A program made the position numbers and the translations under genes. A stretch of DNA of 19,110 nt from a virus. The notes under the pieces were generated by a model. That model was not told the DNA's origin. It did not search any database and saw nothing but the letters and a program-made list of their open reading frames with translations. The DNA lies in the UHGV virus genome UHGV-0048443; one strand, written 5' to 3'. Shown here one piece after another: positions 11,580-16,210 of the stretch. Numbering within the stretch: position 1 is the first letter of the stretch; every line of letters starts with the position of its first letter.

Positions 11580-11733
11580 TTTTATATTGGCGAGGTGACG
11601 AGAGTTAAGTAGAATTGCTGCGGGTGCTTGAGGCTATCTGCCTCGGGCATGAACAGCAACGGCAGATAGATAAAAGCCCCAGTTAACATTACGCGTCCTG
11701 CAAGACGCTTAACATTAATCTGAGGCCCAATCT

Positions 11734-11931
11734 ATGCTTCACAAACGTAGGTTAGCCTCTTACGAGCCGAAAGGCAAGGAGAAGCAGGCTATGAAGCAGC
11801 AAAAGGCGATGTTAATCGCCCTGATCGTCATCTGTTTAACCGTCATAGTGACGGCACTGGTAACGAGGAAAGACCTCTGCGAGGTACGAATCCGAACCGG
11901 CCAGACGGAGGTCGCTGTCTTCACAGCTTAA
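11734..11931 (+). CDS. Mok-like reading frame: in-frame N-terminal extension of hok (65 aa)
   Basis: ORF MLHKRRLASYEPKGKEKQA-MKQQK...; layout parallels chromosomal mok/hok pairs as I recall them. Confidence 0.45.
   Translation: MLHKRRLASYEPKGKEKQAMKQQKAMLIALIVICLTVIVTALVTRKDLCEVRIRTGQTEVAVFTA
11791..11931 (+). CDS. hok: Hok-family type I toxin (46 aa), HokD/RelF-like
   Basis: MKQQKAMLIALIVICLTVIVTALVTRKDLCEVRIRTGQTEVAVFTA matches HokD over its length from memory; AAGGAG SD 9 nt upstream of ATG 11791. Confidence 0.8.
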   Translation: MKQQKAMLIALIVICLTVIVTALVTRKDLCEVRIRTGQTEVAVFTA

Positions 11932-13105: not shown

Positions 13106-13395
13106 TGGTGGATTTACGTAAAGCGGCAAAAGGTCAGATGTGTACAGTCAGAATTCCTGGCTACTGCAATCACAATCCCGAAACGTCCGTGCTGGCGCAT
13201 TACAGGCTGGCGGGGACGTGTGGAACAGCGACAAAACCACACGATATGCAGGCGGCAATTGCCTGTAGCTCATGCCACGATTTAATCGACGGGCGGGTAA
13301 AAACCAGCGATTACACCAAAGAAGAATTGCGCCTGATGCATGCAGAAGGTGTTTTTCGCACACAAGAAATCTGGAGAAAGGAAGGTTATTTATGA
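13105..13395 (+). CDS. YbcO/DUF1364-like putative zinc-binding nuclease (96 aa)
   Basis: Cys/His motifs (CTVRIPGYCNHNPETSVLAHYR...CSSCHD); TAATG coupling to the upstream gene and ATGA coupling to the downstream gene. Confidence 0.7.
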   Translation: MVDLRKAAKGQMCTVRIPGYCNHNPETSVLAHYRLAGTCGTATKPHDMQAAIACSSCHDLIDGRVKTSDYTKEELRLMHAEGVFRTQEIWRKEGYL

Positions 13396-13946
13396 TTTAC
13401 CCAACAAATACAGGCAAAAGCGGGGAACACCTTCGTCTCACCACGCTGGAAAGTGTCTGGATTCAGGGAAAACTGCGCATGTGGGGGCGCTGGTCGTATA
13501 TTGGCGGCGGTAAGACGGGAAATATGTTCAACCAGTTGCTGACCTCTAAAAAGCTGACAAAAACGGCAATTAACGAGGCGCTCCGGAGGATGAAAAAAGC
13601 AGGTCTGGACAAACCTGAACTTGAGGCTTTTTTGCGGGATATGATCAACGGCAAGCAAAAAAGCTGGCTGGTGCATTGTACTGATGCAGAGGCGTTATGC
13701 ATTGATCGGGTGATTAGTGAAGTGCTGGCAGAACACCCAGGATTGATTTGTATCCTCCGGCAACGATATGAAGGGAGGGGGATGACTAAGCGAAAAATGG
13801 CTGAATTGCTGAATGGTTCACACCCTGAGTGGTGTTACGCCACGTGCCGTAATCGCATAGATGCGTGGTTGAAAATGGCAGAGTTTATGCTCTATCTGCC
13901 GATGCGTGATGCATTCTCTTCCGGGGATTCAAAAACCGTCTGTTGA
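13392..13946 (+). CDS. Late-gene antiterminator Q-like protein (184 aa)
   Basis: Start at ATG 13392 (AAGGAAGG SD), not the ORF-track upstream Met. Position directly upstream of a promoter-plus-terminator unit and the lysis genes; Cys-rich C-terminal half. Family assignment from position and motif recall. Confidence 0.6.
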   Translation: MIYPTNTGKSGEHLRLTTLESVWIQGKLRMWGRWSYIGGGKTGNMFNQLLTSKKLTKTAINEALRRMKKAGLDKPELEAFLRDMINGKQKSWLVHCTDAEALCIDRVISEVLAEHPGLICILRQRYEGRGMTKRKMAELLNGSHPEWCYATCRNRIDAWLKMAEFMLYLPMRDAFSSGDSKTVC

Positions 13947-13972
13947 CTCAATCTGTTATCCGGGGCTATATT
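13943..13972 (+). promoter_or_regulatory. Candidate late promoter (PR'-like): TTGACT - 18 bp - TATATT
   Basis: Near-consensus -35 overlapping the Q stop codon and a -10-like hexamer; lambda PR' has the same -35 hexamer and position relative to Q. Confidence 0.5.
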
Positions 13973-14035
13973 CCTCACGCGCCAGCAAAATCTGGCGTCG
14001 GGATTGGCGTCCTGGATAGAGACCGCGACAGATAC

Positions 14036-14059
14036 ACGCCGCGAGCGTGTTTTTTATTG
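14036..14059 (+). terminator. Candidate tR'-like terminator (cacgc-cgcga-gcgtg + TTTTTTATT)
   Basis: Short GC stem followed by a T-run, about 65 nt downstream of the predicted start site. Confidence 0.4.
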
Positions 14060-14216
14060 TCGTATGCGCGCGCACATCTGAATTATGGTGGGCTGTGTGG
14101 GGGCGGAGAGATCCGCGCCGGTCGGTTTCCCGGTTACGCCAACCCTGCACAGTTCACCACCAGACGATTGGCGTCGTCGGTGGTGAGTTATTAAGAAACC
14201 ACCAGAGGGCGTCATT

Positions 14217-14828
14217 ATGACAACTCAAATTTCTGTTGAAACTCTTTCCCCGATCACCCATAACCAGATTCCTGTTATTACCACCGAACTTTTAGCGCAG
14301 CTTTACGGCACTGAGCCGGTGCGTATTCGCCAGAATCATCATGAGAACAAAGTACGCTTCGTTGAAGGGAAACACTTTTTCAAAGTTGTTGGTAATGACC
14401 TTAAAGAATTGCGGGTAGCTTTAAACTACTCACAAAATTTGCGGGTTACTTTAAGTAACTCACAAAATTTGCAACCATCTTTAAGAGGGTTGCAAATTTC
14501 CCCGAAAGCCCGCTCCCTCATCCTCTGGACAGAACGCGGAGCAGCCCGTCATGCCAAAATGCTCGAAACCGATCAGGCGTGGGATGTGTTCGAAAAGCTG
14601 GAAGACTGCTATTTCAGTCAAAAGGATCCGTCAACGCCAGTTTCATGCCAGAAAAGTTACGACACGCGAGTTCTCTGTTATCAGCAAGGCGGTGTCACTG
14701 TTTCCACAATTCAGTTGCGGGATGATGATATTGTTATTTCCCTTGAGTCATGGCTGGAACTGGCGAGAGCCAATGGTTGGTTTGTTGTTCGCAGAGATAA
14801 ACTGGTGGAAAGGCTGATGCAGCTTTAA
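14217..14828 (+). CDS. ORF6N/KilA-N-type domain protein (antirepressor-like), 203 aa
   Basis: N-terminal pattern IPVITTELLAQLYGTEPVRIRQNHHENKVRFVEGKHFFKV and later ARHAKMLETDQAWDVFEKLED are typical of ORF6N-domain proteins; GAGGG SD before ATG. Confidence 0.75.
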   Translation: MTTQISVETLSPITHNQIPVITTELLAQLYGTEPVRIRQNHHENKVRFVEGKHFFKVVGNDLKELRVALNYSQNLRVTLSNSQNLQPSLRGLQISPKARSLILWTERGAARHAKMLETDQAWDVFEKLEDCYFSQKDPSTPVSCQKSYDTRVLCYQQGGVTVSTIQLRDDDIVISLESWLELARANGWFVVRRDKLVERLMQL

Positions 14829-14923
14829 AAAAGTTCTTGCAATTTTAGCCATAAACTGCTTCAATTCCGGTACGCTTCGCAAAGCTGTATCGCGAGGCGA
14901 ACCAAGCGCATGAACTTTACCAG

Positions 14924-14952
14924 AACCCGCCATTGAGCGGGTTTTGTTGTTT
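14924..14952 (+). terminator. Rho-independent terminator (aacccgc-cattga-gcgggtt + TTTTGTTGTTT)
   Basis: About 100 nt after the ORF6N gene stop. Confidence 0.55.
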
Positions 14953-15176
14953 CTGACGGATAGAAAAAATGAAATAGCTAAATAAAAAGAATGCATTGGA
15001 TGCCATATATTGGCAACGTGACGACAGCGTTAATCTGGTCGGGCTCCCATGGCGACGTAGTGAGGGAGAGGAAGCGTAAAGCATCACTGAGTTACGGTTG
15101 GCACCCGGTTTAACGCGTAAGTAGCCTGATAAAGAGATAGTGCACCGCGGCACTAACAGCGGCAACGATTAACTGA

Positions 15177-15201
15177 CCTCGGCATTTGCCGGGGTTTTTT
15201 T
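15177..15201 (+). terminator. Rho-independent terminator (cctcggc-attt-gccgggg + TTTTTTT)
   Basis: 7-bp stem (one G-U pair), 4-nt loop, seven T; about 100 nt upstream of the holin start. Confidence 0.6.
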
Positions 15202-15325
15202 ATTTAAGGCCGCAGACAGGCCCATTTAGTGCAACGCCTTTCCCCGTTTCCGCTCCTGGAATATTCGGGGATTTTTTATTCCCTCAATTTGCACCCGCGA
15301 TATGTGCGAGGTGAGAGATGATGAA

Positions 15326-15693
15326 ATGCCTCATAACCCAAATACCTGGCCGGACTGGCTGGAGTTGTTTCAGAGCTGGTGGCGTGGAGACACTCCGCTG
15401 GGCGCAGTGATTATGTCGATCGTTATGGCTGGTTTGCGCATCGCCTATTTTGGCGGTGGTGGGGGCTGGAAACGAAAAACGCTTGAGATTCTGCTTTGTG
15501 GTGCTCTGACGCTGACCTTTGCATCCGCGCTTGAGTATGTCGGATGGCCTAAATCACTTTCTGNNNNNNNNNNNNNNNNNNNNNNNNNNTTTCTGTTGCC
15601 ATTGGTGGTGGGGTGGGGCTGATTGGTGTTGATGCTATTCGTGGTGCGGCAATGAGGGTCATCGGTAACAAGTTCGGTGCCCATAAGGAGTAA
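15326..15693 (+). CDS. Class I holin, lambda S-like (interrupted by N-run 15564-15589)
   Basis: LRIAYFGGGGGWKRKTLEILLCGAL parallels lambda S [22 protein letters not shown]; C-terminal part after the gap (SVAIGGGVGLIGVDAIRGAAMRVIGNKFGAHKE) parallels the lambda S C-terminus. In-frame alternative start at 15302. Directly upstream of the endolysin. Confidence 0.6.
15564..15589. other. Assembly gap (26 N) inside the holin gene, flanked by duplicated tttctg
   Basis: N-run. Merging the flanking 6-bp repeat restores a continuous in-frame holin. Confidence 0.8.
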
Positions 15694-15696
15694 TTA

Positions 15697-16210
15697 ATGC
15701 AGACACTTAATTCCCAGCGTAAAGCTTTCCTTGATATGGTGGCATGGTCAGAAGGAACAGATAACGGACGGCAGAAAACCAGAAATCACGGTTATGATGT
15801 TATTGTCGGTGGCGAACTGTTCACTGATTACTCCGATCACCCCCGCAAACTTGTCACGCTAAATCCGAAACTCAAATCAACAGCCGCCGGACGTTACCAG
15901 CNNNNNNNNNNAATCAACAGCCGCCGGACGTTACCAGCTTCTTTCTCGCTGGTGGGATTCCTACCGCAAGCAACTTGGCCTGAAAGATTTTTCTCCAGAA
16001 AGTCAGGATGCTGTAGCGCTGCAGCAGATTAAAGAGCGTGGCGCTTTACCGATGATTGACCGTGGCGATATTCGTCAGGCAATCGACCGTTGCAGCAATA
16101 TCTGGGCGTCGTTACCTGGTGCAGGTTACGGTCAGTATGAACATAGAATCGGTGACCTGATTTCCCGATTTAAAGAAGCTGGTGGGGTGGTAAATGAAGC
16201 TGAGATATAA
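15697..16210 (+). CDS. Endolysin, lambda R-like lytic transglycosylase (interrupted by N-run 15902-15911)
   Basis: QRKAFLDMVAWSEGTDNGRQKTRNHGYDVIVGGELFTDYSDHPRKLVTLNPKLKSTAAGRYQ matches lambda R closely from memory; after the gap, LLSRWWDSYRKQLGLKDFSPESQDAVALQQIKERGALPMIDRGDIRQAIDRCSNIWASLPGAGYGQ continues the match. Confidence 0.85.
15902..15911. other. Assembly gap (10 N) inside the endolysin gene, flanked by an exact 27-bp duplication (15875-15901 = 15912-15938)
   Basis: aatcaacagccgccggacgttaccagc occurs on both sides of the N-run; removing the gap plus one copy restores the lambda R-like frame. Confidence 0.85.

Follow-up and report, generated by a model that had tools for sequence, protein, structure and literature searches.

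The gap between the antirepressor and holin genes

The window (UHGV virus genome UHGV-0048443, a stretch of 19,110 nucleotides (nt)) contains a gap at 14829-15301, located between the gene of an ORF6N antirepressor (14217-14828) and that of a lambda-family holin, which is followed by a GH24 lysozyme gene. Here, we describe this gap as a succession of three units on the plus strand: a putative late-promoter cassette (unit 1, 14838-14952), a mobile non-coding cassette built around a structured RNA core (unit 2, 14953-15203) and the leader of the holin gene (unit 3, 15204-15325). The gap region is part of a lambdoid Escherichia coli prophage and is 100% identical to E. coli P4 and FP4. Upstream, the gene order is DUF1367, YbcO/DUF1364 and a DUF1133 protein (13392-13946); 3' of the DUF1133 gene, Rfam matches to c4-a1b1/isrK (13966-14055) and C4 (14081-14164) precede the antirepressor gene. 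RefSeq places the start of the holin at the equivalent of 15326, behind the Shine-Dalgarno (SD) sequence GAGGTGA (15308-15314), and a further in-frame ATG is found at 15302. Due to these two in-frame starts, the gap ends at either 15301 or 15325.

An earlier note on this DNA had described the gap as a non-coding stretch without tRNAs, which is borne out on both counts. No open reading frame (ORF) of at least 60 amino acids is present on the plus strand of 14829-15301. The minus strand has two ORFs of 82 amino acids (14748-14996 and 14917-15165), which were ruled out as genes by frameshifting 1-nt indels in near-identical relatives. The RefSeq annotation of a 100% identical E. coli genome has no entry in the gap, ARAGORN detects no tRNA in it, and the Rfam 15 models yield no match at gathering score on 14829-15301 and terminator-driven noise alone at E ≤ 10. 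The two hairpin-plus-U-tract elements that the earlier note had pointed out on the plus strand are real. Terminator 1 (14921-14952), with a stem at 14921-14946 followed by a T-tract, has a folding energy of -16.1 kcal/mol (z = -4.75), and terminator 2 (15175-15203), with a stem at 15175-15196 and seven T's, one of -15.4 kcal/mol (z = -5.10); none of 200 shuffles was as stable in either case. The ccccg...cgggg stem mentioned in the same note proves to be part of a third terminator-like site (terminator 3, 15241-15278), which combines a stem at 15241-15246/15266-15271 with a tract of six T's at 15273-15278 (-13.2 kcal/mol; z = -2.0). A pattern scan of 13900-16100 returned six terminator-like sites, compared to 2.8 ± 1.7 in shuffled sequences, and three of the six fall within the 473-nt gap.

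The gap was cut into segments that were compared against 108 fetched loci (designated by L-numbers below), and its distribution was surveyed with BLAST against 5426 complete E. coli genomes. Part of the gap is matched in 1181 of these genomes, nearly all matches being to the part with unit 1. Just 18 genomes have a site that matches 80% or more of the gap, and the middle part (14990-15205) occurs in only 35. Among the phage isolates of INPHARED, 14950-15301 has no match. The comparison with related prophages, as suggested in the earlier note, reveals a mosaic of three separately inherited pieces in the 108 loci: 14843-14955, 14956-15205 (segment B plus terminator 2) and 15206-15301, the last of which is inherited with the holin. 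The middle piece is optional and follows terminator 1 in some phages only, while sibling prophages hold 700-1000 bp of protein-coding cargo (morons) at that place, between the antiterminator gene Q and the lysis genes, in agreement with the earlier view of a cargo slot. On balance, we favor the interpretation of the gap as a leader that regulates the late (lysis) operon and is composed of three separately inherited units.

The outer units: Q-linked cassette and holin leader

The DUF1133 protein matches PF06576 with 355 bits and also reaches 26.3 bits for Phage_antitermQ (PF06530), for which the cut-off is 26. Its best matches in PDB are to the Q protein of phage 21 (6P18/6JNX; E ~1e-3), and the DUF1133 protein has been called a Q antiterminator by HHpred (PMC8136144). 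Judged from these matches, it is a predicted Q21-type antiterminator, albeit a distant homolog. The mechanically called ORF of this gene starts at 13272 (224 amino acids) and overlaps the YbcO gene, whereas the RefSeq-equivalent start is 13392 (184 amino acids); the Pfam domain of the long form starts at residue 41.

Unit 1 adjoins or overlaps the stop codon of a DUF1133-type Q gene in two sets of 49 + 68 distinct loci, whose Q proteins are 59-99% identical. In DUF1133 prophages without isrK and ORF6N (module-less prophages), the equivalent of 14843-14955 starts ~15 nt 3' of the Q stop codon. Compared to these prophages, the isrK-C4-ORF6N module of the window (13947 to ~14842) is an insertion, which puts unit 1 ~890 bp from Q. 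The second set, comprising 68 distinct regions downstream of Q (59-99% amino acid identity of Q), shows the same hexamer pattern and spacing. The common plan reads TTGMAW, 16-17 bp, TTSAAT, 5 bp, (TGn)TAnGCT, 3-4 bp and RAMGYT, followed by an A-rich stretch and a GC-rich hairpin with a T-tract. The version of the window is TTGCAA, 16 bp, TTCAAT, 5 bp, TACGCT, 4 bp and AAAGCT, with the terminator ~50-70 nt further.

The -35-like hexamer TTGCAA (14838-14843) appears as TTGATT, TTGAAT or TTGCAT in relatives and keeps its distance of 16-17 bp to TTSAAT in all Q subtypes, even where it lies inside the Q coding sequence. TTCAAT (14860-14865), which is preceded by TGc and reads TTGAAT in relatives, is invariant across subtypes and a candidate -10 element. 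A consensus promoter scan skips it because its position 2 lacks the consensus A, and it might be a Q-binding repeat rather than a -10 element. In the -10-like hexamer TACGCT (14871-14876), a candidate sigma-dependent pause element or extended -10 element, TA and GCT are kept and position 3 can be C, T, A or G, with TGn before it in most subtypes. The second -10-like hexamer, AAAGCT (14881-14886), is replaced by GAAGCT or GACGTT in other subtypes, and RAMGYT occurs 3-4 nt after TAnGCT in all of them. A2 and T6 of both TAnGCT and RAMGYT are kept in nearly all relatives seen, with L061 (CAAGCT) as an exception. The predicted leader RNA carries a 5' stem-loop (14870-14902), for or against which covariation cannot speak as its sequence is invariant. 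The RNA fold of 14870-14955 has a ΔG of -30.0 (z = -2.93), and two out of 200 shuffles are as stable.

The position of terminator 1 is occupied in relatives by GC-rich hairpins with T-tracts, of which at least six unrelated versions occur at equal distance; in the 68 further regions, the A-rich spacer and the terminator hairpin are swapped for unrelated sequences, again with the distance unchanged. A kept position combined with sequence turnover is the expectation for a functional terminator and supports terminator 1 as such. Judged from these alignments, terminator 1 belongs to the cassette that follows every examined DUF1133-type Q gene and is not merely the end of the ORF6N gene. In short-type relatives, TTGAAT forms a direct repeat at 23-bp spacing and the second copy of TTGAAT contains the Q stop codon. 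The window type still has the ancestral 3' end of Q as non-coding DNA (AAACTGCTTCAATT vs. AAAGTGCTTGAATT), and its retention while non-coding argues for a function at the DNA level. E. coli KC-Dl-1, which carries a Q gene of the PF06530 type, has its own different 75-nt unit before a related terminator. This is expected if the Q-proximal part of the cassette is Q-specific.

We consider it highly probable that unit 1 is a Q-linked late promoter/terminator cassette, in which terminator 1 would be tR'. From its anatomy, we infer a transcription start, pausing and a dependence on Q. As the cis-acting partner of the DUF1133-family Q (13392-13946), unit 1 would hold a sigma-70-type promoter with tandem -10-like hexamers. 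Without Q, RNA polymerase would start near 14872-14884, pause on a -10-like element and terminate at 14948-14952, freeing an RNA of ~70-80 nt. When Q is loaded at the pause, the polymerase would traverse terminator 1 as well as the two further terminators and reach the holin and endolysin genes. In this phage, a P1-type isrK-C4-ORF6N antirepressor module was inserted between Q and unit 1.

A number of observations weigh against this interpretation. The pattern scan of 14829-15301 calls no promoter; the candidate hexamers deviate from the consensus and TTCAAT lacks the -11 A. An alternative register, with TGn-TAnGCT as an extended -10 element and the TTGAAT repeats as Q sites, fits equally well, leaving the start site uncertain by ~10 nt. 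No Q-binding element was recognized in unit 1, and the TGAGCA repeat of Q21 (PMC6606751) is absent in the window type. Moreover, the upstream conservation in short-type phages could in part be due to coding constraint on Q. Segment B (14956-15173) was also considered as the PR'/qut region, since it is found 3' of Q in KC-Dl-1 and strain 44. This option was ruled out, as module-less DUF1133 loci show that 14843-14955 is Q-linked and segment B is optional cargo. The DUF1133 branch of Q antiterminators is common, as shown by the 1181 E. coli genomes with a match, but to our knowledge no biochemical work on it exists. With unit 1, this branch gains a concrete candidate cis site consisting of a promoter, pause-like hexamers and a terminator, and the dozens of aligned variant cassettes provide testable predictions on Q specificity.

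At the other end of the gap, unit 3 comprises terminator 3 and the SD sequence and start of the holin, with which it is inherited. Other DUF1133 phages have a different hairpin-plus-T-tract at the place of terminator 3, before the same GCGAGGTGAGAGA SD region. Because its position is conserved through sequence replacement, terminator 3 is probably the third functional terminator of the gap. With three terminators in tandem separating the late promoter from the holin, lysis would depend tightly on Q.

The mobile cassette and its RNA core

Unit 2 centers on a structured RNA core (15012-15126) that is 84-100% identical across contexts that are otherwise unalignable, with 15057-15092 being nearly invariant. 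The core was retrieved from other E. coli prophages, 49-kb phage-plasmids, Citrobacter, Enterobacter, Serratia, IMG/VR contigs and gut metagenomes. A total of 49 copies were collected by the covariance model R1, and alignments were made of 25 and later 41 distinct copies. The fold consists of the helices P0 (15012-15017/15121-15126), P1 (15022-15026/15036-15041), P2 (15044-15048/15064-15068), P2b (15049-15051/15056-15058), a small hairpin (15071-15075/15081-15085) and P3 (15095-15097/15105-15107). In the 25-copy alignment, five pairs are changed on both sides compared to 2.6 ± 0.8 in shuffles (4/500). The 41-copy alignment raises this to eight pairs compared to 4.6 ± 1.3 (9/500), or 65 cells compared to 16.7 ± 6.3 (0/500). 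Slid controls gave zero to two pairs for either alignment. The covariations gained in P1, P3 and the small hairpin are contributed by lineages outside the main clade split, and two covarying pairs sit in helices of the single-sequence minimum free energy fold. The structure is assigned to the plus strand because G·U intermediates occur on that strand only. A consensus produced by RNAalifold (with long-range pairing of 15039-15043/15104-15108 and 15086-15089/15095-15098) was rejected, as it contains two double-change pairs compared to five for the P1/P3 alternative.

Some caution is needed, since alignment A4 was fitted to the model and the stability of the core does not exceed that of shuffled sequence (z = -0.04). 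In addition, the three strongest covariations coincide with one deep two-clade split, so the number of independent events is small. Taking both sides into account, the core is in all likelihood a genuine structured RNA. The RNA motif of unit 2 is supported by covariation, absent from Rfam, in which the core has no match, and not found in the literature searched, where the invariant 20-mer returned nothing. A likeness of GGCG(A/G)CGTAG and GGTTTAAC to the consensus of ops/JUMPstart and boxA was too weak to be retained. The earlier note had suggested a structured small RNA (sRNA) ending at 15201. Conserved structure is indeed present upstream of terminator 2, as attested by covariation among 41 distinct homologs, but the conserved RNA is the 115-nt core and not a transcript set by an end at 15201. 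The covariance-model and tRNA checks proposed alongside it gave no Rfam or tRNA match in the gap; the structural conservation in related phages, which was also to be looked for, was found.

The core is embedded in a cassette with a recurrent layout. In the window, a degenerate SD sequence GACGGATAG (GGAGGAT in relatives) and the mini-ORF ATG AAA TAG occupy 14955-14977, with the mini-ORF at 14969-14977. An SD sequence and an AUG with zero to three sense codons and a stop codon are located 31-42 nt 5' of the core in 27 out of 29 representative copies, including members of all three genomic contexts described below; for L124 and L233, there is no call at that distance. The mini-ORF occurs as AUG AAA UAG, AUG AAG UAG, AUG UAG or AUG AAG CAY UAA, with a GGAGG-like SD sequence. 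Hairpin H1 (14978-14996) has the form GCGG-nnnGA-CCGC in relatives; it is intact in L004, L113, L234 and others, and mutated to a remnant in the lineage of the window. Hairpin P(-1) (15001-15015; UGCCA-UAUAU-UGGCA) overlaps the 5' strand of P0, and the two compete for one GGCA in most lineages. The stem of P(-1) is kept with lineage-specific sequences (UGCCU/AGGCA, GCCUGA/UCAGGC, GCCCUG/UAGGGC, CACCC/GGGUG), while its loop varies in both sequence and length. On the other side of the core, the 3' extension (15127-15176, with a hairpin at 15139-15143/15150-15154) is shared with the phage-plasmid copies, which match over 15017-15202 with 85-87% identity. Other relatives mostly have a different 3' extension, CCGGGAAACCGG.... 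In group-3 relatives, the loop-closing pair of terminator 2 shows one compensatory change from C-G to U-A. The core is followed by a terminator in the plasmid copies and, as a homolog of terminator 2, in other late-leader copies, whereas the PL-leader copies have none; terminator 2 also occurs without the core, namely in L063 and ~60 phage-plasmids. In several copies, the T-tract of the upstream terminator abuts the SD sequence (~5 nt). The loci L139 (1860-2110) and L149 (1851-2101) carry the same SD sequence, mini-ORF, hairpin and 3' hairpin around an unrelated non-coding middle of ~200 nt, which has no match in Rfam, and may represent a sister cassette in the same frame.

The core is found in three contexts and is always co-oriented with the operon that it heads. 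In context (i), it lies between a DUF1133 Q gene and the holin gene (the window, L234, L219 and L220). Context (ii) consists of lambda-like prophages, in which the core lies between cI and the early-left genes (gam, bet/recT, exo or N-like), downstream of operator-like repeats (OL/PL-like), a hairpin and a boxA-like TGCTYTTTAACAA. In context (iii), represented by phage-plasmids, it is located between a terminator and a gene for a protein of 151 amino acids; the ~60 related plasmids mentioned above have this terminator without the cassette. L113 has no promoter-like site 5' of the core. A conserved leader with the hairpin GGCGGACAGCAAGTCGCC comes after immunity-specific, operator-like inverted repeats in L113 (3150-3300) as well as in the PL-type loci aligned with it. 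The boxA-like site of these leaders, ~250 nt upstream of the core, is nutL-like but has its hairpin 5' of boxA. An arginine-rich protein of 81 amino acids (MATTSRQKRMAKKRNAHIQALAKRESNR...) is encoded in L218 (5111-5356), ~260 nt downstream of the core in the PL-type context. It resembles an N-type antiterminator, and therefore the core would lie in an N leader there. The contig IMGVR_UViG_3300022758_000254 (15.4 kb; L150/L154 and L008/L020) has two copies of a DUF1133 Q gene plus core in inverted orientation, one at each end, in an 84% and a 99% version. This double copy could be an assembly chimera or the ends of two adjacent prophages.

We infer the role of the core from these contexts. Unit 2 would be transcribed by read-through from the promoter of the operon (PR' with Q here, PL elsewhere) and have no promoter of its own. 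It would act in cis on the leader, be it on elongation or termination, on the processing or stability of a transcript that heads a long operon, or by release of a processed RNA. We put forward such a role of the core as a leader element acting in cis as a tentative proposal. The more specific idea that the cassette represents a new class of mobile cis-acting leader RNA, i.e., a put-like or other processivity or stability device that would, without dedicated protein, enable RNA polymerase or the transcript to get past the start of a long operon, is rather doubtful. Degeneration of the SD sequence and H1 in the lineage of the window means that this copy of the cassette may be decaying. No second copy of the core was found in the window or the fetched loci, and one copy per phage argues against a general nut/put-type site on every operon. 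If the idea holds, the device would be pluggable into a PL or PR' leader, with L139 and L149 hinting at a family of interchangeable modules. The motif has an unusual ribosome-binding mini-ORF and stands at the beginning of early-left or late operons, both in temperate phages from several enterobacterial genera and in phage-plasmids. An effect on elongation, termination or mRNA stability would make it a portable regulatory part, whereas it would be a new phage accessory RNA if it is trans-acting.

The latter possibility corresponds to an independent moron at 14953-15203: an sRNA of ~190-240 nt that would be expressed in lysogens, start from a separate promoter located between terminator 1 and the core, end at terminator 2 and target host or phage mRNAs in trans. 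Terminators lie on both sides of the cassette in the window as well as in other late-leader copies and the phage-plasmids, which is a classical moron layout in a moron slot, and the match with the phage-plasmids reaches the terminator. In addition, the terminator-bearing 3' part has a good fold (z = -3.96), and the 35 nearly invariant, purine-rich nucleotides at 15057-15092 could be a seed or a protein-binding site. No conserved promoter was found, however. A presumed -10 element TATATT (15006-15011), considered together with an AT-rich block, turned out to form the variable loop of hairpin P(-1), which covaries, and its presumed -35 element is not conserved. The copies in which ~5 nt separate the upstream T-tract from the SD sequence also speak against it, as does the strong SD sequence with mini-ORF, which would be unusual for a base-pairing sRNA. 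Because PL-leader copies lack a terminator after the core (and a promoter-like site before it) and no own promoter is detectable, a discrete trans-acting sRNA is possible yet unlikely, and not the best-supported reading. A leader-peptide or riboswitch-like attenuator, in which translation of the mini-ORF or a factor selects P(-1) or P0 and thereby sets terminator 2, would account for the fixed distance between mini-ORF and core and for the competition for GGCA between P(-1) (15001-15015) and P0 (15012-15017). The sequence GGCAACG occurs twice (15012 and 15160), the late-leader and plasmid copies have a terminator 3' of the core, and the combination of a conserved core and variable 3' extensions is reminiscent of an aptamer and its expression platform. 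Yet, such an attenuator has no terminator to act on in the PL-leader copies and no gene-specific logic, because the downstream genes are unrelated between contexts. In L229, P(-1) is clear of P0, and a by-eye check of pairing between the core and terminator 2 gave no convincing terminator/antiterminator alternative. As a Q-modified polymerase would also override it, we consider an attenuator quite improbable.

Two further explanations deny the core a role as RNA. According to the first one, 14953-15176 is a non-functional recombination scar or decaying filler, similar between phages through recent shared ancestry and covarying by chance. The rarity of segment B in E. coli (35 out of 5426 genomes), the ordinary thermodynamics of the core, the degenerate SD sequence and H1 and the single clade split behind the main covariations would all suit such a scar. 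It is very unlikely given the identity of 84-88% amid unalignable flanks, the occurrence in Escherichia, Citrobacter, Enterobacter and Serratia hosts, the eight doubly changed helix positions (some of them, in P1, P3 and the small hairpin, being independent) and the strand-specific G·U intermediates. Moreover, the layout of SD sequence, mini-ORF, H1, P(-1) and core survives replacement of the sequence. The other explanation holds that the core encodes a protein of 31 amino acids, from GTG at 15018 to TAA at 15113 (MTTALIWSGSHGDVVRERKRKASLSYGWHPV). Third-position changes between clades (ACA>ACG, GGC>GGT, CAT>CAC, GAG>GAA) and a +1/-1 indel pair that restores the frame to the same TAA point in this direction, and the frame is open for 212 amino acids in L124. 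The same changes are explained as compensatory pairs, though, and the ratio of ~8 synonymous to ~19 non-synonymous variable sites is near the neutral expectation. The GTG is lost in L007, L121 and L125, a 2-nt deletion shifts the frame in L121, a consistent SD sequence is missing and the long ORF of L124 crosses an obvious internal SD sequence and ATG of a real downstream gene. Since these lineages interrupt it and an excess of synonymous change is lacking, the ORF was rejected, and a coding function of the core is extremely improbable.

Neighboring modules and known phage systems

Outside the gap, a hok/sok type I toxin-antitoxin system is present at 11622-11931 in the nin-like region of the prophage (Rfam sok, 107.6 bits), and the identical genome annotates hokD there. 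A run of masked bases (N) at 15565-15589 lies within the holin gene, where the mechanical ORF calls are truncated. The region between Q and the ORF6N antirepressor gene (13943-14216) holds a P1/P7-type immunity-I module with c4-a1b1 targets, isrK and the C4 antisense RNA (Rfam scores of 50-76 bits). It has a promoter-like TTGACT-18-TATATT, of which the -35 element overlaps the Q stop codon. As the Rfam matches isrK and c4-a1b1 overlap each other, the module resembles a C4-type system whose a1/b1 target leader appears to be "IsrK".

Among known systems, the put RNAs of HK022 (putL/putR, PMC9378689) share with the core that they are structured leader RNAs of long phage operons without an evident dedicated protein, and the core of one group of relatives is located just downstream of PL, like putL. 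However, there is no likeness in sequence (an nhmmer search with the core profile gave no match in the PL and PR regions of HK022). The core measures ~115 nt with at least five helices and occurs once per phage, compared to ~70 nt, two stems and one copy per early operon for put. Furthermore, the core is preceded by an SD sequence and a mini-ORF, and its PL-type relatives carry a separate boxA-like site. Unit 2 also resembles morons such as stx, tRNAs, bor and the sRNAs AgvB and AsxR in its slot between Q and the lysis genes, its alternatives in sibling phages and its terminator flanks. It differs from them in being non-coding, in having no detected promoter of its own and in occurring in PL leaders and phage-plasmids as well.

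Unit 1 is comparable to the late cassettes of lambdoid phages (lambda with its 6S RNA, phages 21 and 82, and 933W with StxS). In its relatives, it adjoins or overlaps the 3' end of Q, and it has promoter-like hexamers, -10-like repeats, a terminator tens of nucleotides further and the lysis genes downstream. As for phage 21, its Q protein is distantly related to Q21. On the other hand, the sequence of unit 1 is unrelated to the cassettes of lambda, 21 and 82 and its candidate -10 element is non-consensus. In contrast to the lambdoid Q cassettes, no Q-binding element is recognized, Q lies ~890 bp away in the window and two further terminators follow. StxS provides a precedent for a PR'-tR' RNA that is a real regulatory sRNA (PMC7547250).

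The closest counterpart in layout is found in Gifsy-1 of Salmonella, where the order is Q, isrK, C4, ORF6N (anrP) and IsrJ, and where an isrK-orf45-anrP-isrJ transcript as well as a separate short IsrJ have been described (PMC4825925). IsrJ of Gifsy-1 (RF01393; Rfam 100 bits) begins after TTGCAA-17-TATATT, directly 3' of the anrP stop codon. Likewise, a TTGCAA -35-like hexamer comes right after the stop codon of the ORF6N antirepressor in the window, and the predicted RNA of ~75-80 nt would have a 5' hairpin and an intrinsic terminator, with isrK/C4 and, before these, Q upstream. The two are not homologous, as the isrJ covariance model has no match at E ≤ 10 in 14700-15400. The Q protein of Gifsy-1 is of the Q82 family (PF06323) and that of the window of the DUF1133 type, and the promoter of IsrJ is near consensus while the candidate of the window is not. 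In other phages, IsrJ-like DNA coincides with annotated Q genes or adjoins them; the IsrJ homologs of Klebsiella and Enterobacter phages, for example, overlap the 3' end of Q. The position of IsrJ in Gifsy-1 (L109, 33395-33520, minus strand) is the expected PR'-tR' site of a Q82-family antiterminator. The terms "late promoter" and "qut" do not occur in the Gifsy-1 paper (PMC4825925). By analogy, the matching layouts of Gifsy-1 and the window suggest that IsrJ and the predicted RNA of unit 1 are positional equivalents of each other and of lambda 6S RNA and StxS, each being a by-product of transcription from PR' to tR'. IsrJ would then join the class formed by lambda 6S RNA and StxS.

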